Numbered from the stretch's first letter, positions 4,850 through 60,689 are shown. The stretch: 64,000 bases of DNA from Bacillota bacterium (GCA_023435925.1 JAEZLF010000063.1:496-64495), one strand, 5' to 3'. Notes: a model not told the origin generated them from the letters alone. Translations and numbers: made by a program.

Positions 4850-6379
4850 ATGCCTAACAATATAGAGAGTAATACGATAACAGACAATAAGTTAAATAGC
4901 GCGGCGAATAGCATATCCAACAGCCTCCATGAGATGGAGCTGATATTCGAGATCAGTAAAACCGGCAGGAAGGCATATAATTTGCCGGAATGTGATGTGC
5001 CCCAACAGGATCAGGAAAGCCTGCTCCCTGCTGAATTACTCAGAGAAGCGGATGCAGCATTGCCGGAGGCAAGCGAGGGAGATGTGGTGAGGCATTTTAC
5101 ACAGCTCTCCCGGCGAAATCACGGAGTGGATTCCGGGTTTTACCCTCTCGGCTCCTGCACGATGAAATACAATCCCAAGATCAATGAAGAAGTGGCCGGT
5201 TTGGAGGGCTTCACCGGTGTACACCCATATCAGCAGGCGGATACGATTCAAGGCTGTCTGCAGGTAATATATGAGATGGACCGGATGCTCTCAGAGATTA
5301 CCGGCATGGAGCAATTTTCTCTCCAGCCGGCAGCCGGAGCCCATGGTGAGCTGACAGGCCTCATGATCATGAGAGCCTATCATCAGAGTCGGGGAGACGA
5401 GGCCCGTACAAAGATTATTGTACCGGATTCCGCTCATGGTACAAATCCTGCTTCGGCGGTGCTGGCAGGCTTTGAAGTGGTTGAAGTGAAATCAGATGCC
5501 AGAGGCGGAGTGGATATCGATGCATTGAAACAAGCGGTGGGTAGTGATACGGCGGGGCTGATGTTGACGAACCCTAACACGCTGGGATTATTCGACGAAA
5601 ACATCAACGAAATCGCCAAGATCATTCACGATGCGGGAGGATTGCTTTACTATGACGGAGCAAATGCCAACGCAATACTGGGCATTTGCAGACCGGGGGA
5701 CATGGGCTTTGATGTGGTCCATCTGAATCTCCACAAGACCTTCAGCACTCCCCACGGAGGAGGAGGGCCTGGAGCCGGTCCGGTCGGTGTCAAAAAAGAA
5801 CTGGTGCCATTCCTGCCCACACCGGTTGTGAGGCTGGAAAATGGCAGGTACAGCTTGGACAATGAACGTCCTCAGTCCATCGGACGAGTGAAAGGCTTTT
5901 ATGGCAACTTTGGGGTCATACTGAGAGCATATGCCTATATCAGAACAATGGGGCCGGACGGCCTTCGAAGTGTTTCTGAAACAGCAGTCTTAAATGCGAA
6001 TTACCTGATGGCAAAATTGAAAGATTATTTCCTGCTGGCATATGACCGTGTCTGTATGCACGAATTTGTGCTGTCTGGGCAGCGGCAGGCGGATAAGGGT
6101 GTCCGCACACTTGATATGGCAAAAAGACTTCTTGATTTCGGATATCATCCGCCAACAGTCTATTTCCCATTAATTGTCCATGAAGCCATCATGGTGGAAC
6201 CGACGGAAACAGAAAGCCTGGAGACACTGGACCGGTTCGCGGATACCATGATCAGAATCGCGGAGGAAGCGGAGAAGGAACCGGAAAAAGTAATTCATGC
6301 TCCATACAATACCGTAGTTACAAGGCTTGATGAGGTCAAAGCGGCCAGGACACCGGTTCTGAAATGGGAAGGTAAATAG
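4850..6379 (+). CDS. gcvPB: glycine dehydrogenase (decarboxylating) subunit 2
   Basis: PLP-lysine context [19 protein letters not shown] place the start at ATG 4850 (MPNNIES), 2 nt after the gcvPA stop and behind GGAGGTG, rather than at the track start 4817, which overlaps gcvPA. Confidence 0.93.
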
Positions 6380-6390
6380 CGTAAGTATTT

Positions 6391-6420
6391 GGGGCAGCAT
6401 TTGTAATGCTGCCCCAAAAA
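6391..6420 (+). terminator. hairpin after gcvPB
   Basis: GGGGCAGCA-TTTGTAA-TGCTGCCCC is a perfect 9-bp stem 12 nt after the gcvPB stop. The trailing tract is A-rich rather than T-rich, so it may act bidirectionally or weakly. Confidence 0.5.
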
Positions 6421-6585
6421 TTTGTTCACAGCCCGGGTCAAATAGTATATAATATCTTCATTGCGAGCTGCGAAATAGCGAGCGAAGCTGAGGATATTAT
6501 ACGCTTCCGGCGGAATAACCTCACTATTATGCGAAACAACCGCGATATTATTATGAAGCAGGGTCACAAAGGGTAAATAACAAGC

Positions 6586-7020
6586 ATGAATGAAGACATT
6601 TTTCAGAGCATTGGAGAACAATCCTCCATAAAGCATGGCGATAGCAACACCTACTCGCCGTTAGTACTTGCCTATGTAGGTGATGCGGTATTTGAGCTAT
6701 TTGTCCGTACGTTACTTTTGAGCCATGGAAATGCGCCGGTTCACAAGCTCCATAAGCAATCCATTTCCTTTGTAAAAGCAAAGGCTCAGTCGGACACGAT
6801 TCATCAGCTTATGGACGGTTTGACTCAGGAAGAGCAGGATATTGTAAGAAGAGGTAGAAATGCAAAATCGGGGACCATCCCTAAAAATGCAGATGTAACA
6901 GAGTACAAATATGCAACAGGATTTGAGACGTTACTGGGTTATCTTTATATAAAGGGAGACTATGCGCGGCTGCTTGAGCTGTTGAAGCAATCAACGGAGC
7001 ATGGCCGGAACGGGATATAG
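6586..7020 (+). CDS. mrnC: mini-ribonuclease III
   Basis: 144 aa with the RNase III-like signature LVLAYVGDAVFELFVR. It lies immediately upstream of rlmB, as in the Bacillus yazC-yacO arrangement. Confidence 0.85.
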   Translation: MNEDIFQSIGEQSSIKHGDSNTYSPLVLAYVGDAVFELFVRTLLLSHGNAPVHKLHKQSISFVKAKAQSDTIHQLMDGLTQEEQDIVRRGRNAKSGTIPKNADVTEYKYATGFETLLGYLYIKGDYARLLELLKQSTEHGRNGI

Positions 7021-7094
7021 GTGTATTCGGAGCAATAATAAAGAGGCTCGAGAGGTTATCAATAAGTCAGCAGAAGCAGAAAGGGCGTATAGTT

Positions 7095-8402
7095 ATGGGA
7101 GAAAACAAAGGATTCGGCAAGGGAAGTCGAAATGAAGGATATAAGCCTGCAGGATGGGGCGGCAAGGGAGTCGGTGCACGCGGCCAAAATTCCGGTGGAG
7201 CAAGAGGCAGCAGTACATCGAATTCCGGTGGGGCGCGAGGCAGTGCATCAAATTTCCGCAGTAAGCCGAAGGATGCGCAGGACAGAGGCGGTTCGGCGGA
7301 TTTCCGCAGCGGCAAACCGAAGGATGCTCAGGATAAAGGTGGATCAGCAGATTTCCGTAGCAGCAAATCGAAGGATTCACAGAATAAAGGTGGGTCGACA
7401 GATTTTCGTGGCGGTAGAAGTAAAACCGGAACCAACGGTTTTAAGAGTGGTCACGGAACAGAAAAACCACAAGGCTTTGTCTCTGATGCTTTCCACGGAG
7501 ATAAAAAAAGCAGTGAATATAAAAGAAATGACAGGCAGCAGAAGCAGCCAGACTATCGAAGCAAGCGTGATGAGCTGCAGGAATCCAGAAATGTCTATGA
7601 GGAGAATAAGCTGCAGGACACCAGAAATGACTTTGAGGGAAACCGCGCGGAGGAGTTTCAGGGAGACCTTGACAAGCTGGAGGGCAGAAATTCTGTACTG
7701 GAAGCACTTAAGTCAGGAAGAAGTATTAACAGGATTTTTGTGGCAAAGGGCGATCGGGAAGGCTCGGTAAACCAGATCATCGCGATGGCCAGACAACATC
7801 ATATATTAGTTCAGGAAATCGATAGAGCCAAGCTGGATGCCATGTCTGTCACACAAGCCCATCAGGGTGTAATAGCACTTACTGCGGCAAAGGATTATGT
7901 CGAAGTGGATGATATTCTGGAAATTGCTGCTGCAAGTGGCAGAGCACCGTTCATTATTATTCTGGATGAAATCACCGATTCGCATAATTTGGGGTCTATT
8001 TTAAGAACCGCCAATGCGGCCGGCGTGCATGGTGTTATCATTCCGAAGCGCAGAGCGGTCGGTCTCACCTCTGTTGTTTCAAAAGCCTCTGCCGGAGCCA
8101 TTGAATATGTGCCGGTTGCGCGGGTTACCAATATTGTACAGACCATTGAAAAGCTTAAAAAGCAGAATATATGGGTAGCAGGCACAGATGCCACAGGAGA
8201 AAAGCCATACTTTGAGATGGATCTCACCGGACCCATTGCTCTTGTCATCGGAAGTGAAGGTGAAGGAATGGGGAAGCTTGTCCGTGAAAGTTGCGACTTT
8301 GTAGTAAACATTCCCATGCTGGGGCAAATCTCTTCATTGAATGCCGCTGTAGCCGGAGCGATTGTTACCTATGAGATATTAAGGCAACGGAGTAAAAAAT
8401 AA
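7095..8402 (+). CDS. rlmB: 23S rRNA (guanosine-2'-O)-methyltransferase, SpoU/TrmH family, with ~190-aa low-complexity N-terminal extension
   Basis: The C-terminal 245 aa carry SpoU motifs (LEGRNSVLEAL, LDEITDSHNLGSILRTA, IGSEGEGM, IPMLGQISSLNAAVA). The N-terminal part is G/S/R/K/D-rich and repetitive. Confidence 0.85.
   Translation: MGENKGFGKGSRNEGYKPAGWGGKGVGARGQNSGGARGSSTSNSGGARGSASNFRSKPKDAQDRGGSADFRSGKPKDAQDKGGSADFRSSKSKDSQNKGGSTDFRGGRSKTGTNGFKSGHGTEKPQGFVSDAFHGDKKSSEYKRNDRQQKQPDYRSKRDELQESRNVYEENKLQDTRNDFEGNRAEEFQGDLDKLEGRNSVLEALKSGRSINRIFVAKGDREGSVNQIIAMARQHHILVQEIDRAKLDAMSVTQAHQGVIALTAAKDYVEVDDILEIAAASGRAPFIIILDEITDSHNLGSILRTANAAGVHGVIIPKRRAVGLTSVVSKASAGAIEYVPVARVTNIVQTIEKLKKQNIWVAGTDATGEKPYFEMDLTGPIALVIGSEGEGMGKLVRESCDFVVNIPMLGQISSLNAAVAGAIVTYEILRQRSKK
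7254..7424 (+). repeat. in-frame 48-51-nt tandem repeat inside rlmB
   Basis: Three and a half units encode FRS(G)KPKDAQD(R/K)GGSAD, at 7254-7301, 7302-7352, 7353-7403 and a partial unit at 7404-7424. Confidence 0.85.
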
Positions 8403-10972: not shown

Positions 10973-11048
10973 GCCCTCATAGCTCAGTTGGCAGAGCGCA
11001 TCCATGGTAAGGATGAGGTCACCAGTTCGACTCTGGTTGAGGGCTCCA
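10973..11048 (+). tRNA. tRNA-Thr (anticodon GGU)
   Basis: The acceptor stem is GCCCTCA/TGAGGGC, the D arm GCTC-AGTTGGCA-GAGC, the anticodon arm CATCC-ATGGTAA-GGATG and the T arm ACCAG-TTCGACT-CTGGT. The 3' CCA is encoded. Confidence 0.95.
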
Positions 11049-11090
11049 ACAAAAAGAAAGGATAGTCAGATGACTATCCTTTCTTTTTGT
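11049..11090 (+). terminator. rho-independent terminator after tRNA-Thr
   Basis: AAAAAGAAAGGATAGTC-AGAT-GACTATCCTTTCTTTTT is a perfect 17-bp stem ending in a T run, immediately 3' of the tRNA. Confidence 0.8.
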
Positions 11091-11224
11091 TGGCCTTCTC
11101 ACAGTGCCGCCTGATGGCCATTTCCCTAATCGAAGCGCTCTGCCGGCAGAGCATGTAGAGTAAAAAGCAAGCAGTACAAGGAAAACGAACACTGAGGAGC
11201 GGAGCATATGACGATATGTGAGCA

Positions 11225-11307
11225 CCGCAAGTGTGAAGTTTGACGCAGCAATGCGCAGATTTTTACTCCTCAGAGCGTCCATGGTAAGGATGAGGTCATC
11301 TGGTTGT
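11225..11307 (+). repeat. decayed copy of the tRNA-Thr 3' half plus a shared 5' arm (att-like remnant, copy 1)
   Basis: CAGAGCGTCCATGGTAAGGATGAGGTCATCTGGTTG (11271-11307) matches tRNA-Thr from the D-stem 3' side onward, with an internal deletion. The preceding CCGCAAGTGTGAAGTTTGACGCAGCAATGCGCAGATTTTTACTC recurs at 24371-24415. Confidence 0.75.
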
Positions 11308-24370: not shown

Positions 24371-24470
24371 CCGCAAGGGTGAAGTTTGATGTAGTAATGC
24401 GCAGATTTATACTCTACAGAGCATCCATGGTAAGAATGAGATCATAATTCGACTTTGGTTGACGACTCCA
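24371..24470 (+). repeat. decayed copy of the tRNA-Thr 3' half plus a shared 5' arm (att-like remnant, copy 2)
   Basis: CAGAGCATCCATGGTAAGAATGAGATCATAATTCGACTTTGGTTGACGACTCCA (24416-24470) aligns with tRNA-Thr 10992-11048 at roughly 80% identity by eye, through to the CCA end. The 5' arm at 24371-24415 matches 11225-11270. Confidence 0.8.
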
Positions 24471-24948
24471 ATAAGACTTTAAAATACTTGATATGTAAAC
24501 GTGAATCCGACATTTTGTTTTATATGAAAAAGTCAACTTGTCAACTAACAGCAAACTAAACTAATTAATAATAGTTCATTAAGAGTAGTTATGGCAAAAT
24601 TGAGTGTTAGCATCTATAATTTTGATCGACATCGGTGTAGGTTTGTACAAATATCATTCACAAGGTAGGGATAACATATAAAAGCAGTTAATAAGTATCA
24701 AGCATACTATTCTATTTACCTGAATATGCACTAATTACAATATTATTAAGTTAATGTTTTTACATAAAAATTAGGTAACAATGAAGGAATTAGGAAGTTT
24801 ATGTAGAATAATGTTGTATGAGTTAAATATGCACAAGGGGGAGTTATAGATGCAAAAAAACAATGAGACTCAAGAAACTGATGATAAAAAAGAATAACCA
24901 TAATATTGTTTAGAATAAATTTCATGAATGTAATGTATAGGGGGATTT

Positions 24949-38768: not shown

Positions 38769-38933
38769 CGATAGATTGCAAATAAAGAAACGGTAGCATT
38801 GATGGACAGACTCGTTCATCATACTCACTTTTATGTAAATTTAACTTACAAACCTTGTAAACATATGTCAACATTGCTTATATTGATATAGGCTATTTAT
38901 TTCGCTGTTAAACTATAAGTACCGTCGTATATA

Positions 38934-39296
38934 AAAAATCCTAAGGAGATTCCACAATGCCAACCACCCACTATAACAAACTAATCCGTGACAAAATCCC
39001 TGAAATTATTGAAAAATCCGGTAAAAAACCAATCACAGAGATACTTGATGCCGAGGCCTATAAAAAGCACCTTGACCTAAAACTCAGCGAGGAGCTTCAA
39101 GAATATCTTAATGACGATAATATCAATGAGTTGGCTGATCTGGTTGAAGTGATTTATGCGATCCTAAAACATAAGGGTATTGAGCTGGACGATTTTGAGC
39201 AAGTTCGAAAAAGGAAGGCAGAGGAGCGGGGAGCATTTGATAAGAGGCTGTTGCTAAAAGAAGTCAGAGACTAAATCATGAGTTATTGTCAGACAG
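38934..39296 (+). repeat. 363-bp direct repeat, copy 1 (MazG-like gene plus first 21 nt of the downstream helicase gene)
   Basis: It aligns colinearly, with substitutions only, to 41422-41784. Both copies end at ...TAAATCATGAGTTATTGTCAGACAG. Confidence 0.9.
38957..39274 (+). CDS. MazG-like all-alpha NTP pyrophosphohydrolase (copy 1)
   Basis: 105 aa. The N-terminus YNKLIRDKIPEII and the acidic metal-binding helices SEELQEYL and ELADLVEV match small MazG/phosphoribosyl-ATP-PPase-like proteins. Confidence 0.7.
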   Translation: MPTTHYNKLIRDKIPEIIEKSGKKPITEILDAEAYKKHLDLKLSEELQEYLNDDNINELADLVEVIYAILKHKGIELDDFEQVRKRKAEERGAFDKRLLLKEVRD

Positions 39297-39371
39297 CCTA
39301 ATCAACAAAACAGGATGAGCTCGAAGTTTATTGTAAGAAGTACAATGAAGTGATATTGGAGGGTTTTTATA

Positions 39372-40049
39372 TTGAGCGGTTTGACAGAAAAGTATGTTCA
39401 GGATGTTTCTTTGGAATTCCTTAAAAAGTATTATGAGGATAAGGACAAACCTGAAAAGATCTTTTGTAAAAAAGAAGTGGTGACCAAATATAAAAAGCGA
39501 AAAGGAAGAGCGGATGGGTTAATTGCTTATAAGAATGGAAATCAGATTTATACTGTGTCATTGGAAGCAAAGTCGCATAAAACATATGATACCCTGATTG
39601 CAATATATAATGATAAATTGTGGTTATTGATTGGTTTCATAGTTGCTTGCATTATTTTTGCTTTCTCCATTTTTTTACTTTGGCAGTTAAATTGGATTAT
39701 CAAGATGGTTATTTCTTTATCTGTAGGGACATTATTTGGGTTTGCAGCAATGTTTCTTATAGATGAAAAAGGATATTTGAATAGGCATGGGATTATTGAA
39801 CAAGTAAGAAGATATCCTGCCAATGAACGGTGGATTGCTTTTTCATATGATGCTTATAGCTTTTTCGATAAGCAAAATGAACATGAATTAAAGATTCGTG
39901 CTAAAAGATATGGAATCGGCATCATAATTGTCAGCAAATCAAGAAAGGCTTATATTGAACTGCATGCTAAAGCAAGTAACATGAAGGGAAAAATGAATTT
40001 TCTAAAATACTATTCAGCAGCAGACAGTATTGAAAAATCTATAAATTAG
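39372..40049 (+). CDS. hypothetical membrane protein with PD-(D/E)xK-like motif split by a TM hairpin
   Basis: TTG start behind GGAGGG. GRADGLIAYK...YTVSLEAKS forms a D...EAK pattern. Two or three TM helices follow (LWLLIGFIVACIIFAFSIFLLW, MVISLSVGTLFGFAAMFLI), then a soluble tail ending in RYGIGIIIVS. Confidence 0.4.
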   Translation: MSGLTEKYVQDVSLEFLKKYYEDKDKPEKIFCKKEVVTKYKKRKGRADGLIAYKNGNQIYTVSLEAKSHKTYDTLIAIYNDKLWLLIGFIVACIIFAFSIFLLWQLNWIIKMVISLSVGTLFGFAAMFLIDEKGYLNRHGIIEQVRRYPANERWIAFSYDAYSFFDKQNEHELKIRAKRYGIGIIIVSKSRKAYIELHAKASNMKGKMNFLKYYSAADSIEKSIN

Positions 40050-40100
40050 TATGAGAATTGAAGAAAATATCAAAGCTGTTGTCATAACCTGTCATCTGTT

Positions 40101-40877
40101 ATGATAATGAATAATCTATCATCAATTTATAGTTACAAATATAGACAAATTATGATATTATTAAGTATATTGATTAGTGTAAATAAGTTTATATGGGGAA
40201 GGTTCTCTATGGGTAATGATGGTATTGATATTTATGAATTTGCCTATAAATTAAGCTATAAAAAAGATAAACGTAAGCTTTTCGTGATAGGGCTTGGAAT
40301 TATATATTCATTTGATTTGATATTCTTCTTAATTCTTAAAAACGTTATAAAAATAAATTCCATCATTAGTTTTCTTATTATTTTTGTATCCATCTGTACG
40401 TACCCATTTTTAATTGGGATAATAAGATCTTTCTTCCCATTTCATGAAAGAAAGATTGAAAATAAGAAGTTAGGTGAATCTTCAAAAGCTATTGAGGATG
40501 CTATAAAGAATTATTTCAATGAATCATTTGTAGATCAAAATGACATAGTATGTCGTGCAAAACAAGCGAGTGCGTATTTAATTAATACAGGAATAATTAT
40601 TTCTGATTTGCAGAAAGAGATGGAAGAAAGAAATAGAGCACTTGAGAGCTTGTTATCAACCATTGAGACAAGGAAACAAGATGCTGAGTATTACGCCCAA
40701 TTAGCAGCTTTAAATGAGCAATTAGCAGCGCCCTTGATGAAAGAGATTGAAAAAGTCATAAGAAATGAGTTCGAGCTAAAAGAAAAACAAAAAAGAGTGT
40801 TTAATATTCTTATTTGGATAGTTACCTTAATTGCGGGTGGAATTGTAGGGGTATTATTTCAAATATGGTTTTCATAA
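40101..40877 (+). CDS. hypothetical membrane protein with coiled-coil segment
   Basis: It has 2-3 N-terminal TM helices, a central helical E/K/Q-rich region and a C-terminal TM helix. A likelier start is ATG 40209 (MGNDG), behind GGGGAAGG. Confidence 0.4.
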   Translation: MIMNNLSSIYSYKYRQIMILLSILISVNKFIWGRFSMGNDGIDIYEFAYKLSYKKDKRKLFVIGLGIIYSFDLIFFLILKNVIKINSIISFLIIFVSICTYPFLIGIIRSFFPFHERKIENKKLGESSKAIEDAIKNYFNESFVDQNDIVCRAKQASAYLINTGIIISDLQKEMEERNRALESLLSTIETRKQDAEYYAQLAALNEQLAAPLMKEIEKVIRNEFELKEKQKRVFNILIWIVTLIAGGIVGVLFQIWFS

Positions 40878-41094
40878 ATACTACAAGATGTTTGGATTGA
40901 TGTTGCTTTGAAAGATATAGAAGAAGCTAAAAGAAAAATTGATGAGATTCCTAAACAGCACCCGTTTGAGTTAAGATATCATGTAAATGTCGGTAAGGTA
41001 GATTGGGAGAGATGCGTTAATGTGCTGGATGGTAAGGAAAAACGTAAGTATTTGATGAATGGATGGAGATAAATCGGTAGAGGGGTAAGAAAAG

Positions 41095-41325
41095 ATGGCT
41101 AAAGTTAGTAAAATAAGTAAGATTGAGAAGAATAGGGATTCCATACATGTTGATGTTGAATGTACCTATAGCGTGTTTGAGAACTTTGGGAAGAAATATT
41201 TCCAGATAGACACATATGGTACAGAACAAAGACAAGTGAAAAACCAACCGAGTCAGAAGATTCAGTTTGATAAAGAATTTGCAGTTCAATTAATTGATAT
41301 ATTAAAAAAGGAATTTAACTTGTAA
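41095..41325 (+). CDS. hypothetical small protein
   Basis: 76 aa, AGGGGTAAG RBS, no recognisable motif. Confidence 0.35.
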   Translation: MAKVSKISKIEKNRDSIHVDVECTYSVFENFGKKYFQIDTYGTEQRQVKNQPSQKIQFDKEFAVQLIDILKKEFNL

Positions 41326-41421
41326 AGAGGGCTATAACTCTTTGCTCCAGATGCAACTTAGGGAAAAGAGATATGATGCTATGAGATTCTGTCCATATTA
41401 TACTATGAGCACAATCATGAA

Positions 41422-41784
41422 AATAATCTTGAGGAGATTATAATATGCCCACGATCCACTACAACAAACTTATCCGCGACAAAATCCCTGAAATTATCGA
41501 AAAATCCGGCAAAAAGCCGATTACAGAAATACTTGATGCCGAAGCCTATAAAAAGCACCTTGACCTAAAACTCAGTGAGGAGCTTCAAGAATATCTTAAA
41601 GACGATGATGTCAATGAGTTGGCCGATCTGGTTGAGGTGGTTTATGCGATCCTGAAACACAAAGGCATTGGGCTGGACGATTTTGAGCAGATCCGTAGAA
41701 AGAAGGCAGAGGAGCGGGGAGCATTTGATAAAAGGCTGCTGCTAAAAGAAGTCAAAGACTAAATCATGAGTTATTGTCAGACAG
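41422..41784 (+). repeat. 363-bp direct repeat, copy 2
   Basis: See copy 1. In this copy the helicase reading frame continues intact beyond the repeat. Confidence 0.9.
41445..41762 (+). CDS. MazG-like all-alpha NTP pyrophosphohydrolase (copy 2)
   Basis: 95 of 105 residues are identical to copy 1. The stop lies 3 nt before the helicase ATG. Confidence 0.7.
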   Translation: MPTIHYNKLIRDKIPEIIEKSGKKPITEILDAEAYKKHLDLKLSEELQEYLKDDDVNELADLVEVVYAILKHKGIGLDDFEQIRRKKAEERGAFDKRLLLKEVKD

Positions 41785-44054
41785 GGGGAGTCGGTGTGGA
41801 GAATGAAGTGAGGTATACAACCAGCCTTGCCAGCGTAGCAGAGGATTTATTTGTAGAATTATTCTGCGAAGCATTCGGGCCGGACAAGACACAATATCTT
41901 TCTGTGCAGCATCCCTTTGTAGATATCTACGGAAATAGAAGATACATAGATTTCGCACTTGAAAGTGATGTCTTAAAGCTTGCTATAGAGATCGATGGTG
42001 AGAGATTTCATAATCCTCAGAAGGTTTCTGGTAATAAGTACCATGATGACCTTCTGAAACAAAACAGTCTGATCTATAACGACTGGAAGGTTTACAGATG
42101 GGCATATGTTCAATTGAAAAGGCAGCGGGAAAAGGTAAAGGACGAACTATTCACTTTTGTTGGTGAAATGCCGCAGTTCAGGATGCTGGATGATTATCTG
42201 CCAAAACAGAAGGGAAAAACATTTGAACTGAAGAATCATCAGCAAGCAGCCATAGATAACCTGCAAAAGATGAGGGAGAATGGAGAAAGCATTGCACTTC
42301 TATACCATGCAACAGGGGTCGGGAAAACGGTTACTGCCGTAAGCGATGCCCGGAAAGTAGGCAAAAGAACGTTATTCCTCGCCCACACCAGGGAGCTTGT
42401 GAAACAAGCGAAAAATACGTTTGAGAGCATTTGGACGGATAAGCAAACCGGCATGTATGTAGCGGAACAAAAAAGCGAGGATGCATACATTGTATGTGCA
42501 AGCATTCAAAGTGTTGCTCAAAACCTCGATCATTTCAAACCGGATGACTTTGGATATGTAATTATTGATGAATGCCATCACGGTACAGCGGAGACCTATA
42601 GAAAAATATTAGGTCACTTCAAGCCGGAGTTCACTCTTGGTTTGACTGCAACACCAGAAAGAGCGGATGGTGAAGACTTACTGGAGTTGTTTAAGAACAT
42701 AGCGCACAAGCTTGATTTAAAAACTGCCGTTGAGATGGGTGAACTGTCGCCCATCCGCTGTATTCGCGTTAAAACAAATGTTGACCTGTCAACTGTTCGC
42801 ATTAACGGTATTAAATATTATTCTCAGGATCTTGAAAGTAAGCTCTTTGTTCCGGAAAGAAACAGAATAATTATTGACACATACCTACAGTATGTGAAGA
42901 ATAGGAAGACGGTTGTGTTTTGTGCGTCGGTGAAGCATGCAGAGGAAATTGCCGGATTATTCAGGGAAAATGGAGTGAAATGCGAAGCAGTTTCGGGAAC
43001 GCTCAGAGCGTCGGAAAGAGAACGGATTCTGGAGAATTATGAAAACGGAGAAATTTATGTTCTATGCGCATGTGACCTACTGAATGAGGGATGGGACAGC
43101 CCTAAGACAGAAGTATTGCTCATGGCAAGGCCCACCATGTCTAAAACTTTGTATATGCAGCAGCTGGGACGTGGAATGAGAAAATGTGAGGGCAAGGAAT
43201 ATCTTATGGTATTTGATTTCATCGATAATGCGAATATGTTCAACACTCCATATTCCATCCACAGACTGTTGAATTTGAAAGAGTACAGACCTGGACAAAT
43301 GGTATTGGCTCCGCAAAAGCAGCTGGAGCTTGATAAAGATTTGCTGGCAAAAGGCGAAAAGCCTGAGGTGTATTTGGACTTTCCCATTGATGTTGCAGAT
43401 TATGAACTAATCGATCTTTTTAACTGGCAGGATGAAGTAAAGGATATGATTTCCCAGCTCGAGTTTGTCAGAATGGTAGATATTCAATCAGAGACCATTG
43501 AAAAGTACATCCGGGATAGGAAGATAAAGCCCGATCTGGAGGTTCCCGTAGGTGATAAACGCAGTTTCAAATATTTCAAGGAAGATACTGTGAAGAAATA
43601 CGCATCGGAATTCAAGTGGGAACTTATAACAGCAGCCAATATGAAAGATAAATTTATGCAAATGGTTAAGACCATGGATATGAGCTTTTCTTATAAACCA
43701 GTGCTGTTAAAGGCCATGTTGGAACATGTGGATGAAAACGGAAGAGTTCGTGTTGAAGATATCATTGACTTCTTTATAGACTTTTATGGTAACCGAAAAG
43801 ATAAAGGACTTTTTGTTGAAAAGAAGTCCAGTGTATTCTGCAGGGACGGATTTACGCGAAAGGACGTAGAGCGTAATGTTTTTGCTAATCCTTTTAAAAG
43901 ATTCGAAGATATGCGGTTTATGAAGCGATGCAGGGAGATTGAGTATGTTGAGTTTAATAAGCATGTGTTTAAGAAGCTGACTAAAGTGGATATGGCGTGG
44001 ATTAAGGTATACTGTGATGAGAAATTGGGGGAGTATTATGGGAGATACATATGA
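41766..44054 (+). CDS. Vsr/DUF559-like endonuclease domain + SF2 (ResIII/DEAH) helicase + unknown C-terminal domain
   Basis: The N-terminus reads RRYIDFALESDVLKLAIEIDGERFH...NDWKVYRW, the DUF559 pattern. Helicase motifs are HATGVGKT, IIDECHHG, GLTATPER and QQLGRGMR. The last roughly 200 aa (SFSYKPVLLKAMLEHVDENGRVRVEDIIDFF...) are unassigned. Confidence 0.8.
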   Translation: MSYCQTGGVGVENEVRYTTSLASVAEDLFVELFCEAFGPDKTQYLSVQHPFVDIYGNRRYIDFALESDVLKLAIEIDGERFHNPQKVSGNKYHDDLLKQNSLIYNDWKVYRWAYVQLKRQREKVKDELFTFVGEMPQFRMLDDYLPKQKGKTFELKNHQQAAIDNLQKMRENGESIALLYHATGVGKTVTAVSDARKVGKRTLFLAHTRELVKQAKNTFESIWTDKQTGMYVAEQKSEDAYIVCASIQSVAQNLDHFKPDDFGYVIIDECHHGTAETYRKILGHFKPEFTLGLTATPERADGEDLLELFKNIAHKLDLKTAVEMGELSPIRCIRVKTNVDLSTVRINGIKYYSQDLESKLFVPERNRIIIDTYLQYVKNRKTVVFCASVKHAEEIAGLFRENGVKCEAVSGTLRASERERILENYENGEIYVLCACDLLNEGWDSPKTEVLLMARPTMSKTLYMQQLGRGMRKCEGKEYLMVFDFIDNANMFNTPYSIHRLLNLKEYRPGQMVLAPQKQLELDKDLLAKGEKPEVYLDFPIDVADYELIDLFNWQDEVKDMISQLEFVRMVDIQSETIEKYIRDRKIKPDLEVPVGDKRSFKYFKEDTVKKYASEFKWELITAANMKDKFMQMVKTMDMSFSYKPVLLKAMLEHVDENGRVRVEDIIDFFIDFYGNRKDKGLFVEKKSSVFCRDGFTRKDVERNVFANPFKRFEDMRFMKRCREIEYVEFNKHVFKKLTKVDMAWIKVYCDEKLGEYYGRYI

Positions 44055-44183: not shown

Positions 44184-44792
44184 ATGTCGAAGATATCAAC
44201 ATCAGCAGATACTAAGAAAAACACTTTGGATAGATATGAAGCACTAAAAACATTAGTGGTTGATAGAAAAACTCAGTTTGACAGGCTTATTGCGTTTATG
44301 GAAAATGAGACAACTTGGCTGACTTCGCCGGCGAGTACGAAGTACCACCTTTGTAAAGAAGGTGGATTGCTTGAGCATTCTGTCAACGTTGCTGAATCCA
44401 TGTTAAAGATCAGAGAAGCATTAGCTCCGGAAATCAGTGAAGAGAGCTGCGTTATTGTATCTTTAATTCATGACCTGGGGAAGGTTGGAATGCCTGGGAA
44501 TCCACAATATCTGATTAATGAACCGTCAGAGAAACAGCTAAAGTACGGATACAAGCCCGATGCACCATACAGGTTTAATAAAGATCTCACTTATTTGAGT
44601 GTGCCCATCAGGAGTCTTTTCCTGGCTTCGAAATATATAGACCTAACAGAACAAGAGGTACAAGCCATTGTTTATCATGATGGACAATATGTAGAGGACA
44701 ATCGATCAGTTGCTAAAAATGAGGAACCGCTGACATTACTGTTGCAATATGCAGATAGCTGGAGCGGGTTTGTGGCGGAAAAGGAAAGGTGA
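44184..44792 (+). CDS. HD-superfamily hydrolase, YhaM-type HD domain without OB fold
   Basis: SPASTKYHLCKEGGLLEHSVNV and LIHDLGKV (the HD motif) resemble the HD module of YhaM-type 3'-5' exonucleases. 202 aa. Confidence 0.75.
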   Translation: MSKISTSADTKKNTLDRYEALKTLVVDRKTQFDRLIAFMENETTWLTSPASTKYHLCKEGGLLEHSVNVAESMLKIREALAPEISEESCVIVSLIHDLGKVGMPGNPQYLINEPSEKQLKYGYKPDAPYRFNKDLTYLSVPIRSLFLASKYIDLTEQEVQAIVYHDGQYVEDNRSVAKNEEPLTLLLQYADSWSGFVAEKER

Positions 44793-45448: not shown

Positions 45449-45605
45449 ATGGCGCAGTATTTAGTTGAACGATACTCAGAAATGATAAAAAGTATTGATA
45501 AAGCAAATTTGAGAATACGAAATGAAAACAATAAGCGAAAATGAGACCTCCTGGCTTACTTCCCCTGCGAGTACAAAATTTCATTTATGGAAGGGGAATC
45601 TGTAA
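45449..45605 (+). pseudogene. frameshifted 5' fragment of a paralogous YhaM-type HD gene
   Basis: One frame reads MAQYLVERYSEMIKSIDKAN...; the next frame reads ENETSWLTSPASTKFHLWKGNL*. This is colinear with residues around 15-60 of the 44184 gene (ENETTWLTSPASTKYHLCKEGGL). It is cut off where the next gene begins. Confidence 0.55.
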
Positions 45606-46588
45606 TGGACTTTCAATTAAAACAAGAGGTGATACAAAGTGAACTTTTTAAAGGTAAATGTGGAGGGCAATTTAACTCTGCTGAATATCCTTATGTCTTA
45701 AGAGAAGAACATAGAAAAGAAAACTTATATACAGATATTGCTGATAGTGCTATAAAGTATTTTAAAGAAAATAGAATTGTTTGGTGGCGAGGTAAAGACG
45801 GTTTACCTACCAACCATACATTATCTTCACAAGTTGCATGTCTCAATCATCTATTTTGGATAAGAGACAATCAAAAAGCTGCGACAAGCGTTTTAAAGCA
45901 GATAGACAAGGATTTCGTTACGATAAAGTTTCCAAATTCAGATTTAAATTCAGAGAATTATGTTGAATTTGAATTAAATGGATATGATAAAAGTCAGGGG
46001 AACTTACTAGGCGAGAAAGGAAGTGCCAGAGGGGCAAACACAACGTCTATCGATGCGGCAATGTTGGCTATGAAAGATAATAAAATTATACTAATATTTA
46101 TTGAATGGAAATATGTTGAACATTACCATAGGAGAATAGATGCACTGAAAGCTGAACCCAAATATGAAGTTCAAAAAAAGACATATAAGAATCTTCTGTT
46201 AAGTGATGATAGCCCAATTATCCTAGATAAAATAAGAAATAAATTGAACCTGGATTTTGATTTGGCTTATCAGAAATTTTCTGTAGAGCCGTTCTATCAG
46301 TTAATGCGACAAACCTTGCTGGCTTGGAGATTGAGCTGTGTAAAAAGGTATGGAGCAGAAGACTATCTACATATTCATGTTATTCCTAAAGATAACAAAA
46401 AGCTATTGCTATGCAAAACTTCTCCTGAAATCACTGAAGGGTATAGCGATATTCGATCTGCATGGGCAGCACAACTTAAAAATCCAGCAAAGTATATACA
46501 TATGGATCCATCTGAGTTAATTGGACATGCAGCTTTTGAGTACAACAAGGGTTTATATGAGTATTTGAACAATAGATACTGGAGATGA
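45605..46588 (+). CDS. hypothetical protein, possible PD-(D/E)xK nuclease
   Basis: The start is set at ATG 45605, behind AAGGGGA. The candidate motif is SIDAAMLAMKDNKIILIFIEWKY (D...E-x-K). There is no other recognisable domain. Confidence 0.35.
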   Translation: MDFQLKQEVIQSELFKGKCGGQFNSAEYPYVLREEHRKENLYTDIADSAIKYFKENRIVWWRGKDGLPTNHTLSSQVACLNHLFWIRDNQKAATSVLKQIDKDFVTIKFPNSDLNSENYVEFELNGYDKSQGNLLGEKGSARGANTTSIDAAMLAMKDNKIILIFIEWKYVEHYHRRIDALKAEPKYEVQKKTYKNLLLSDDSPIILDKIRNKLNLDFDLAYQKFSVEPFYQLMRQTLLAWRLSCVKRYGAEDYLHIHVIPKDNKKLLLCKTSPEITEGYSDIRSAWAAQLKNPAKYIHMDPSELIGHAAFEYNKGLYEYLNNRYWR

Positions 46589-58935: not shown

Positions 58936-59352
58936 ATGAGCAGTGAAATAATCGAAAAGTCATTAGCACTTGTAGACAGAAGTTTTACCGGTATATTGGG
59001 AACAGTTGATGAAAATGGGATTCCTCAACTGAAGGCTATGATAAAAACAGCGGCAGATGGTCTCAGGGAATTCTGGTTTTGCTCCAATACATCCTCAAAG
59101 AGAGTAACACAGATACAGAAAAACCCGAATGCCAGCCTTTATTTCCACGATGAGAAAACCTTCGAGGGCTTGATGCTGACCGGAAAAGCAGAGGTTTCTT
59201 ATGATGATGTAAAGAGGAAAGAATTCTGGAATGACGGAATGGAAATATACTACCCTTTGGGTTATACTGACCCGGATTTTGCATTGATTCGATTTATTGC
59301 CAGCAAGGGCAACTATTATCACGGACTTAAGAATATTGATTTTGATATATGA
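58936..59352 (+). CDS. pyridoxamine 5'-phosphate oxidase-family (general stress protein 26-like) flavoprotein
   Basis: 138 aa with a split-barrel pattern: GILGTVDENGIPQLKAM, NPNASLYF, LTGKAEV, DPDFALIRF. Confidence 0.75.
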   Translation: MSSEIIEKSLALVDRSFTGILGTVDENGIPQLKAMIKTAADGLREFWFCSNTSSKRVTQIQKNPNASLYFHDEKTFEGLMLTGKAEVSYDDVKRKEFWNDGMEIYYPLGYTDPDFALIRFIASKGNYYHGLKNIDFDI

Positions 59353-59353
59353 A

Positions 59354-60100
59354 ATGGCATTAGTGAAGAAAAACTCAACAAGGGGGATGCCTGTGGCAGA
59401 ACTTAAAGATCCCAATCGCCAACACTGGAACCGGCAGTTTAAAATATTGCAGGACACATGGCCAAAGCCTGATAATTTTGAAACCTGTATTGAAATTTGT
59501 TTGAATGTCCATGCAATGGTGCATACGGCAGAAATGTCTAATACTGGTTTATGGTCCTTTGAGGACGAGCTGTGGCAAAGAATGTCTGAGCCGGTATTCA
59601 GGAAGGTACATAACGACAATCAGTCAATTGCCTGGAAGCTATGGCATTCCACCCGGATAGAAGATATCACAATGAACATTTTAATAGCGGGAGAACCGCA
59701 AATATTATACTCCGGAAACTGGCTTGAAAAGATAGGGGCAACTATACATGATACAGGGAATGCAATGAATGAAAAGGAGATCGAGGTCTTAAGTAATTCA
59801 ATTGATATGCAGGCCCTAAGGGATTATCGTAAAGCAGTAGGAAGAAAGACAAGAAACATCATTAAATCATTGAAAGCAAAGGATTTGAAAAAAAGAGTTG
59901 AGGCTGAAAGACTTAAGATTATAATTGATGAAGGAGCAGTTGTAGAGGAAGCAAGATGGCTTACTGATTACTGGGGCAAAAAGACTTTTTCAGGGCTTTT
60001 GTTGATGCCTGCCACCCGGCATAATCTTGTGCACCTGAATGAATCCATGCGGATTCTCGGGAAAGAAAAATCTCGTAAAATTGATATATTGCAGGAGTGA
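59354..60100 (+). CDS. hypothetical protein (possibly DinB-like helical bundle)
   Basis: The start is ATG 59354, 2 nt after the upstream stop. WKLWHSTRIEDITMN is reminiscent of DinB-family helices. This assignment is weak. Confidence 0.4.
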   Translation: MALVKKNSTRGMPVAELKDPNRQHWNRQFKILQDTWPKPDNFETCIEICLNVHAMVHTAEMSNTGLWSFEDELWQRMSEPVFRKVHNDNQSIAWKLWHSTRIEDITMNILIAGEPQILYSGNWLEKIGATIHDTGNAMNEKEIEVLSNSIDMQALRDYRKAVGRKTRNIIKSLKAKDLKKRVEAERLKIIIDEGAVVEEARWLTDYWGKKTFSGLLLMPATRHNLVHLNESMRILGKEKSRKIDILQE

Positions 60101-60107
60101 CATTATT

Positions 60108-60689
60108 ATGAGCAAAAAAGAGGAATTTATTGATCTTTATAATAAATATATACACAGGGAAGGTGCAGATAAACTACTGGAATACTTGTTATCGAAGGCC
60201 AGTGACTTTTTTACGGCACCAGCAAGTACAAGATATCATGGTTCATATGAGGGAGGACTCGTTGAACATTGTATTAATGTCTATTCCTGCCTTAAGGATT
60301 ACCTATCACGTGATAGAGTAAAGGATCTATATGATATGCAGTTTGATGACGAAACGATTGCAATTGTTGCACTTTTGCATGATTTATGCAAAATCAACTG
60401 CTATAAACCCGGTACAAGAAATGTAAAAGATGAAAATGGGATATGGCAGACAGTTGCGACATATGAATTTGATGATAGGTTACCTTATGGACATGGGGAA
60501 AAATCCGTATATATTATTACCGGCTTTATGAAATTGACACGGGAAGAAGCATTTGCTATTCGATATCATATGGGGTTTTCAGGGGTAGAGGATAAAAGAA
60601 ATGTTGGGGATGCCTTTGAGCAATTTCCATTAGCATTTGCTCTTTGTACAGCTGATATGGAAGCAACTTACTTTGTCGAACGAAAATAA
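60108..60689 (+). CDS. HD-superfamily hydrolase, YhaM-type HD domain (paralog of 44184-44792)
   Basis: APASTRYHGSYEGGLVEHCINV and LLHDLCKI are present. The start is ATG 60108, behind AGGAG. Confidence 0.75.
   Translation: MSKKEEFIDLYNKYIHREGADKLLEYLLSKASDFFTAPASTRYHGSYEGGLVEHCINVYSCLKDYLSRDRVKDLYDMQFDDETIAIVALLHDLCKINCYKPGTRNVKDENGIWQTVATYEFDDRLPYGHGEKSVYIITGFMKLTREEAFAIRYHMGFSGVEDKRNVGDAFEQFPLAFALCTADMEATYFVERK

Follow-up and report, generated by a model that had tools for sequence, protein, structure and literature searches.

Two diverged mazG copies around a patchwork insert mark a probable stepwise remodelling of a bacterial defence island

Within a 64,000-nucleotide (nt) stretch of DNA from a Bacillota bacterium (GCA_023435925.1, JAEZLF010000063.1:496-64495; hereafter the window), two copies of a mazG-like gene, mazG1 and mazG2, stand in direct orientation around a block of AT-rich DNA, and the second copy is followed by the gene for a nuclease-helicase that is the conserved partner of mazG in related genomes. 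The locus is an outcome of ordinary defence-island turnover, best read as the scar of an old, stepwise remodelling, and represents neither a new mechanism nor a new type of mobile cassette. The history that we favour, by somewhat more than an even chance, is that each mazG copy heads one of two mazG-helicase modules lying in tandem, and that the DNA now lying between them is a later replacement of the stretch that ran from the first helicase gene to an HNH endonuclease gene downstream. The features on which this account draws are given below in window coordinates; other loci are referred to by L numbers and other genomes by G numbers.

38855-38884, + strand: sigma-70-type promoter of the mazG-helicase module (TTGTAA-18-TATATT, from a promoter scan), present at copy 1 only
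38908-39296, + strand: repeat copy 1, in which the 3'-terminal 49 nt of the 5' leader precede mazG1 and 22 nt of the spacer between mazG and helicase
38957-39274, + strand: mazG1, an intact open reading frame (ORF) of 105 amino acids (aa), now without a helicase partner
39275-39296, + strand: spacer stub, identical to 41763-41784, breaking off just 5' of the helicase ribosome-binding site
39297-41333, + strand: AT-rich foreign block of ~2.04 kb (31% GC), standing where the helicase of a first module would be expected
39372-40049, + strand: orfA, 225 aa, with a central transmembrane hairpin (from hydropathy)
40209-40877, + strand: orfB, 222 aa (258 aa if read from ATG 40101); the 222-aa product is the deposited gene call
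40908-41072, + strand: orfC, 54 aa with a TTG start, a doubtful gene found in the ORF list only
41095-41325, + strand: orfD, 76 aa, whose exact product is among the deposited gene calls; weak match to phrog_13627
41334-41384, + strand: HNH remnant, the 3' end of a DUF7225-HNH endonuclease gene (last 16 codons), which reads ITLCSRCNLGKRDMML followed by a stop
41398-41784, + strand: repeat copy 2, in which a leader truncated to 49 nt, preceded by no promoter homology, is followed by mazG2 and the initial 22 nt of spacer
41445-41762, + strand: mazG2, an ORF of 105 aa, 95/105 identical to mazG1
41796-44054, + strand: nuclease-helicase, 752 aa from a GTG start, the conserved mazG partner

Aligned in fixed register, 38934-39296 and 41422-41784 are identical at 322 of 363 positions (88.7%) with zero indels, which bears out an earlier note on this DNA that had described a colinear 363-bp repeat with substitutions only, encoding proteins that share 95 of their 105 residues; the codon differences between the two genes are 23 synonymous and 10 non-synonymous. 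The right-hand boundary proposed in that note, common to both copies, is equally sound, since the final 29 nt are identical and similarity ends sharply at 39296 and 41784. The left-hand boundary had to be moved. When gaps are allowed, both in a local alignment and in a blastn comparison of the window with itself (E = 1e-133), the repeat starts 26 nt further to the left and covers 38908-39296 and 41398-41784 (389 and 387 nt, 87% identity, with a single 2-nt indel). This is the sole long nucleotide repeat within the 64 kb, and the source genome, a metagenome-assembled genome of 319 contigs with an estimated contamination of 4.2%, contains two copies of it, both at the present locus.

The repeat had also been thought to include the first 19-21 nt of the helicase gene, which is probably wrong, because the conserved start of that gene lies past the repeat. 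In all relatives, distant ones included, the helicase begins at the equivalent of GTG 41796 (M-E-N/K/Q-E-V/I-R/K-Y; MENEVRY in the window), which is preceded here by GGGGGAG, and the deposited gene calls for the window sequence likewise carry a 752-aa product. A further ATG lies upstream, at 41766, but its equivalent is out of frame in L022, leads into an in-frame stop in L054 and does not exist in L056; judging from these comparisons, it is probably not the conserved start, and the last 22 nt of the repeat probably contain no helicase coding sequence. With the gene model corrected to the GTG start, the repeat ends inside the 33-nt mazG-helicase spacer, and the 22 nt that follow the mazG stop codon are spacer. 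The short ORF that opens after copy 1 does halt at once (MSYCQTA and a stop), just as the earlier description had it.

The single-copy arrangement from which the repeat was supposed to derive is the rule among relatives. In 16 other species-representative genomes of the order, mazG lies directly upstream of a full-length or near-full-length helicase gene, with mazG decayed in one (L080). Single mazG-helicase loci include L004/L023 (G025), L005, L006, L008, L009 and L010, together with the metagenomic contigs L019, L022, L054 and L056, of which L022 has an insertion in the leader. Collapsing the two window copies into one restores the order promoter, leader, mazG, spacer, helicase that is seen in every relative examined, so that an ancestral mazG-helicase junction as the source of the repeat is well founded and its "empty" form is the common one. 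The helicase most similar to that of the window (90% aa identity) is the one of G025/L022. A second locus with two nearby mazG copies was not found in 149 genomes of the order and 399 of the class, and scans of genomes and metagenomic contigs returned no relative closer than ~89%. The two-copy state is a single occurrence among these ~550 genomes, and the alternative cassettes between such repeats that the earlier note had proposed looking for are found in none of them.

The two copies differ in what precedes them. Copy 1 has a leader of ~70 nt which, with its promoter, is conserved in L019, L024, L054 and L056 and, in split form, in L022. The promoter block as found in relatives (TTGTCA-17-TAATAT) is 86-92% conserved in L019 and L056 and also occurs in L024, in L054 and in the left piece of L022, while promoter and leader of copy 1 together are 92-96% identical to those of L019 (leader 96%). 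The sequence upstream of 41398, when compared with the promoter regions of relatives, gave no alignment above shuffled controls, on which ground a decayed promoter upstream of copy 2 was rejected. Since the genes from mazG1 to the helicase are all co-directional, since the sole terminator-like site on that strand lies inside orfA, and since copy 2 has no promoter of the family kind, transcription would start from 38855-38884. The block from mazG1 to the helicase is probably read as one transcript from the copy-1 promoter, and the predicted output of such a transcript would probably be two doses of MazG, two membrane proteins and the nuclease-helicase.

The duplication is old. Between copy 1 and copy 2, dS (the synonymous divergence) is 0.50 and dN (the non-synonymous divergence) is 0.041, with a dN/dS of 0.08, and the copies are as far from each other as from mazG in other lineages (87-88% nt identity), which together indicate an early split after which both were kept under purifying selection. 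Their relationship changes along the gene. In a tree of coding sequence (CDS) positions 46-318 plus the spacer the two copies are sisters (support 84/91), and they share unique sites (DLKLS, TTATTGTCAG) as well as the identical 22-nt spacer stub. In a tree of the leader plus CDS positions 1-45, however, copy 1 goes with L019 (94/93) and copy 2 with L054, L024 and L022. The disagreement between the segment trees points to homologous recombination with related alleles, with a breakpoint near the start of the gene, and a breakpoint inside the repeat implies that mazG has served as a recombination substrate. To this extent the recombination between anchor genes put forward earlier is upheld, but a recent single cassette insertion does not fit copies that are 11-13% diverged with a dS of 0.50. 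Recombination between the copies themselves, which lie ~2.1 kb apart with an overall identity of 87-89% and longest identical runs of 29-32 nt, is possible and would be inefficient.

The DNA between the copies, for which the earlier note had listed three genes (39372-41325), holds four ORFs and the remnant of an HNH gene, and the GC content of 39297-41333 is 0.31, as against 0.40-0.43 for the mazG and helicase genes and 0.426 for the genome. The orfA product belongs to an uncharacterised family, with 44 homologues that are 31-60% identical over the full length, and these occur singly in other defence-type islands (L030, L031, L032), with a CBASS cyclase as neighbour in L030 and a REase-ARP gene close by in L032. 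In the latter (5063-8221), 1.6 kb separate the orfA homologue (50% identity) from a homologue of REase-ARP that shares 36% identity with the product of window gene 45587-46588, and the two families co-occur within ~6 kb in the window, as in L032. For orfB, N-terminal transmembrane segments, a coiled coil and a C-terminal transmembrane segment are predicted. Its C-terminal half has 78 representative homologues, and the C-terminal coiled coil and transmembrane segment weakly match phrog_1193, "hemolysin" (E = 0.001); from these sequence features orfB could be a candidate for a membrane-acting effector. A relative of orfB in L060 is 73% identical, and orfA, orfC and orfD do not adjoin it.

Searches of PADLOC, Pfam and NCBIfam gave no matches for orfA to orfD, and orfC had no family match in Pfam or PHROGs. 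No match to phage or plasmid DNA was found for the insert, for which PHROGs gave two weak matches only; no inverted repeats were found at its ends, and no integrase or transposase domain was found when the 20 longest ORFs of the interval 22.8-50 kb were searched. Elsewhere, relatives of orfA and orfB are never together, never adjoin a mazG and do not recur as a unit. The 2.1-kb insert is a heterogeneous patchwork and not a coherent cassette.

It is the right-hand end of the insert that points to a second module. The HNH remnant aligns with the 3' end of the HNH gene of L022 (11838-11884) at 81% nt identity over 47 nt, with a score of 29 as compared with 18.8 +/- 1.85 (maximum 25) for shuffles, when searched against all of L022. 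There, the HNH gene lies three genes downstream of the locus's own helicase. In the window, 13 nt separate the stop codon of the remnant from the truncated leader of copy 2 at 41398. That debris of a gene with linkage to the module in L022 should lie at this position argues for a second module in tandem and a later replacement, and the join of HNH remnant to copy 2 unites a distal end with a proximal start as a tandem duplication does, on the strength of a short match to one comparator lineage.

The order and the mechanism that we infer are as follows. The head of a second module would have become joined behind the HNH gene (junction 41397/41398), either through a duplication in tandem that took in everything from the leader to the HNH end, or through import of a module from a close lineage by way of a homologous anchor downstream and an illegitimate join upstream. 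The stretch from the ribosome-binding site of the first helicase to near the HNH end would then have been replaced by ~2.04 kb of AT-rich DNA carrying orfA to orfD, with junctions at 39296/39297 and at about 41326-41337, and allelic homologous recombination would subsequently have overwritten the 5' part of one copy. Module 1 (38855 onward) would in this way have retained its promoter, leader, mazG1 and 22 nt of spacer, and module 2, which opens 13 nt past the HNH stop codon, would have had its leader cut to 49 nt and be otherwise complete (mazG2 and the nuclease-helicase).

Several results weigh against this reconstruction. Searches of 39297-41397 with tblastn and blastx found no remnants of a first helicase, of an HD gene or of the 47-aa and 119-aa genes, and no intermediate arrangement was found in any genome searched. 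No HNH gene or remnant was found after the second helicase, so that a simple tandem duplication would need an extra replacement downstream. The match to the HNH gene extends over a short stretch only (47 nt at 81%; 15 aa and a stop), C-terminal HNH motifs of this kind are widespread, and the linkage of HNH gene and helicase is seen in one lineage only (G025). The whole-CDS tree again makes the copies sisters, with weak support (72/84), and the different nearest relatives of the 5' 94 nt of the two copies would also fit modules of separate origin.

The insertion of a cassette by recombination that the earlier note had proposed would, as a single step, be an event of the Campbell type, a duplication-insertion by a single homologous crossover of circular DNA. 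A circle of ~2.49 kb with a 388-bp mazG fragment and orfA to orfD would have entered a resident module by one crossover, leaving chimeric direct repeats around a cassette that the reverse reaction could release. We consider this rather unlikely, for all that the geometry is exactly right: direct chromosomal repeats bracket foreign DNA, their collapse gives the empty site found in relatives, and copy 1 has a native left flank and an abrupt right end, while copy 2 has an abrupt left end and a native right flank. The breakpoint inside the repeat near the CDS start is also in keeping with it, and identical runs of 29-32 nt could still allow rare recombination. However, unlike in textbook Campbell integration, the repeats are mosaic and 11-13% diverged, which at a dS of 0.50 would require an ancient event or a diverged donor, and over their 3' 295 nt neither copy has a closer relative than the other. 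The circle would itself need an earlier copy of the same arrangement. The insert does not recur as a coherent unit, nor are there alternative cassettes or any other two-copy locus in the ~550 genomes; an integrase and terminal inverted repeats were looked for in vain, and the insert ends in what is left of a gene that, in G025, shows linkage to the module itself. The HNH debris, the patchwork nature of the insert and the diverged copies are all left unexplained by one crossover, in what is moreover a single occurrence.

Another possibility is that the locus is a selected composite operon in which mazG1 would act as the nucleoside triphosphate (NTP) pyrophosphatase partner of orfA to orfD and mazG2 would serve the helicase. 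Both mazG genes are intact and have been under strong purifying selection (dN/dS 0.08), the genes are co-directional behind one conserved promoter, and MazG-type genes lead other nuclease-helicase effectors, a SauUSI-like one in L024 and, in L022, a PF12643 protein with an SLFN-type helicase. We nevertheless think it improbable, since the arrangement is unique among the ~550 genomes, relatives of orfA and orfB never adjoin a mazG, and neither the spacer stub nor the HNH remnant is a mark of design, both being debris; the dN/dS, moreover, is an average since the split and cannot show present constraint on mazG1. Less probable still, to the point of being barely credible, is an assembly chimera in which the contig fuses two strains or species at short k-mers shared within mazG. 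The source is a metagenome assembly of 319 contigs with 4.2% estimated contamination, and the repeat does contain identical runs of 29-32 nt. Against this, two deposited contigs, of 68 kb and 96 kb, each record every gene of the stretch, though they may stem from the same reads, and on its right-hand side the island keeps synteny with L019. Importantly, a mis-join at shared k-mers cannot make the unique sequence past the stub, which means that the mazG 3' end and stub truly precede orfA, and the core observation is robust to this artefact.

Both mazG products are predicted, from sequence and fold, to be mazG-like all-alpha NTP pyrophosphohydrolases of the MazG/HisE superfamily. Their homologues bear database names such as "nucleoside triphosphate pyrophosphohydrolase" and "house-cleaning NTP pyrophosphatase (MazG superfamily)", and the mazG1 protein matches PF01503 (PRA-PH) at 17.2 bits (E = 0.007), below the 21.3-bit gathering cut-off; mazG2 has no Pfam match, with PF01503, PF03819 and PF12643 among the models. 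The same PF01503 profile is matched at E <= 0.01 by 23 of the 34 aligned family members, the best at 8.6e-7. Across these 34 sequences, which reach down to 60% identity, the acidic residues E45, E46, E49, E58, D61 and E64 are invariant, and both copies carry them all; they form an EExxE...ExxD-type pattern that we take to be the catalytic metal-binding motif of the superfamily. An AlphaFold2 model of the mazG protein has four helices (pLDDT 94.8), and its top PDB matches in Foldseek are HisE (1yxb, 1yvw, 7bgn), YpjD (2gta), DR2231 and MazG (1vmg), at E >= 0.5 and TM 0.4-0.5. Sequence and profile searches of the PDB with the mazG protein gave no significant match. The window mazG is like proteins of the MazG/HisE families (PF01503, PF03819, PF12643) in size, predicted four-helix architecture and acidic motif, but unlike them it falls below the Pfam threshold and has no significant match, by sequence or by fold, to a solved structure. 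MazG domains have been listed as predicted, unvalidated defence-associated domains (PMC13092281), and a literature search found no description of a system of mazG and a Vsr-like nuclease-helicase.

The partner protein begins with an MTES_1575 Vsr/DUF559-like nuclease domain (24.6 bits, below the 38.2-bit cut-off), followed by an SF2 helicase and a C-terminal domain of ~270 aa. Its helicase core is closest in the PDB to 7CLG (5e-53), deposited as "Putative helicase" and presumably SauUSI, and matches PADLOC mREase_IV at 3e-54. The SF2 core is therefore like that of SauUSI-type Type IV (modification-dependent) restriction enzymes. However, the nuclease is Vsr/DUF559-like rather than PLD, the C-terminal 270 aa do not match DUF3427, and the window-type enzyme, unlike SauUSI, is strictly paired with an upstream mazG. 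An assignment to the SauUSI kind, with PLD, SF2 helicase and DUF3427 in one polypeptide, was rejected since both PLD and DUF3427 are absent.

At other loci, the helicase gene has been deleted or truncated, independently and with mazG intact, five times. These losses lend support to the two-module history, as do the module stacking in L022 and the HD fragment described below. In L024 (7883-8071) the last 51 helicase codons are left, with L063 showing the undeleted form; in L012/L066 (L066 4895-5342) mazG codon 94 is fused to helicase codon ~705; in L011/L068 (L068 4955-5337) helicase codons 60-583 are lost; in L007/L065 (L065 3772-3903) an N-terminal fragment alone remains; and in L058 (6001-6468) there is no helicase left. 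Only at L080 was the converse observed, an intact helicase whose mazG has decayed. Loss of the helicase at five loci, as against one decayed mazG, hints that mazG is tolerated or useful alone, and that a helicase without mazG is not.

In L063 (G044:C194, 2038-8130) an array holds mazG, the Vsr-helicase, a SauUSI-like PLD-helicase-DUF3427 protein of 1046 aa and a NUDIX gene, and L024 is the same array with the Vsr-helicase cut to its last 51 codons. In L022 (5479-8000; the same DNA as L023, G025), the leader is interrupted just past the conserved promoter, ~62 nt from the mazG ATG, by a 2.4-kb block with a PF12643 MazG-like gene (111 aa) and an SLFN-g3-type helicase gene (619 aa), and no long duplication accompanies this insertion. 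Next to the window, L022 is thereby the second locus at which a pair of modules of the MazG-helicase type is stacked behind this promoter. One might go further and see the leader behind the mazG promoter as a preferred landing site where promoter-less modules pile up with no need of an integrase, the MazG-like and SLFN-type pair in L022 and mazG1 with orfA to orfD in the window. Being kept, each time its nuclease-helicase disappears, as a protective, antitoxin-like or deoxynucleoside triphosphate-sanitising partner that downstream effectors can re-use, mazG would then be a portable "operon head" around which the exchange of defence genes in Clostridia is organised; we give this extended idea as a whole little credence. 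Promoter-less blocks behind one promoter also recall integron cassette arrays, both here and in L022. An integron-like reading was rejected, as no integrase and no attC-like repeats were found and as the leader is cut at different positions, ~62 nt from the mazG ATG in L022 as opposed to 49 nt in the window.

A further parallel is offered by defence hotspots, in enterobacteria and others, where cargo turns over between conserved flanks. As in these, variable defence genes in the window lie between conserved neighbours, and truncated gene remnants (spacer stub, HNH remnant, HD fragment) mark the junctions. Unlike in these, the duplicated "anchor" in the window is the first gene of a defence module, which has remained intact after the loss of its partner.

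The HD fragment (45537-45593) encodes 19 aa that match residues 40-58 of the product of the HD gene 44184-44792 with 84% identity, and it lies directly upstream of the REase-ARP gene (45587-46588), as further island debris; a distant HD paralogue (30% identity) is found at 60168-60686. The genes for a PNPOx-like and a 236-aa protein at L019 11362-12529 recur at window 58936-60076 with 88-92% aa identity. They are within ~1 kb of the helicase in L019 and 15 kb downstream of it in the window, and by this synteny on the right the window has ~15 kb of extra defence-type genes (HD, REase-ARP, a helicase-YgjP fusion and others). Further to the left, short direct repeats pair 11225-11299 with 24371-24445 (87%) and 10995-11052 with 24418-24474 (83%), a 170-nt imperfect palindrome (10982-11152) adjoins a tRNA-Gly gene, and a tRNA-Thr predicted by ARAGORN at 10973-11048 is not borne out by Rfam; the repeats at 10982-11299 and 24371-24474 may be att-like ends of a ~13-kb island. 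A tandem glycine riboswitch with two aptamers (1566-1775) lies upstream of the gene at 1895-2998.

Taken as a whole, the locus is a well-resolved example of how a defence island is rebuilt, through module duplication or stacking, effector replacement and allelic recombination, in which the debris left behind dates and orders the steps. It also brings out the strict linkage of mazG and the Vsr-like nuclease-helicase as a module of two genes, of which mazG often outlives the helicase, and this asymmetry in the retention of mazG provides a testable hint as to the role that it may play for its partner.

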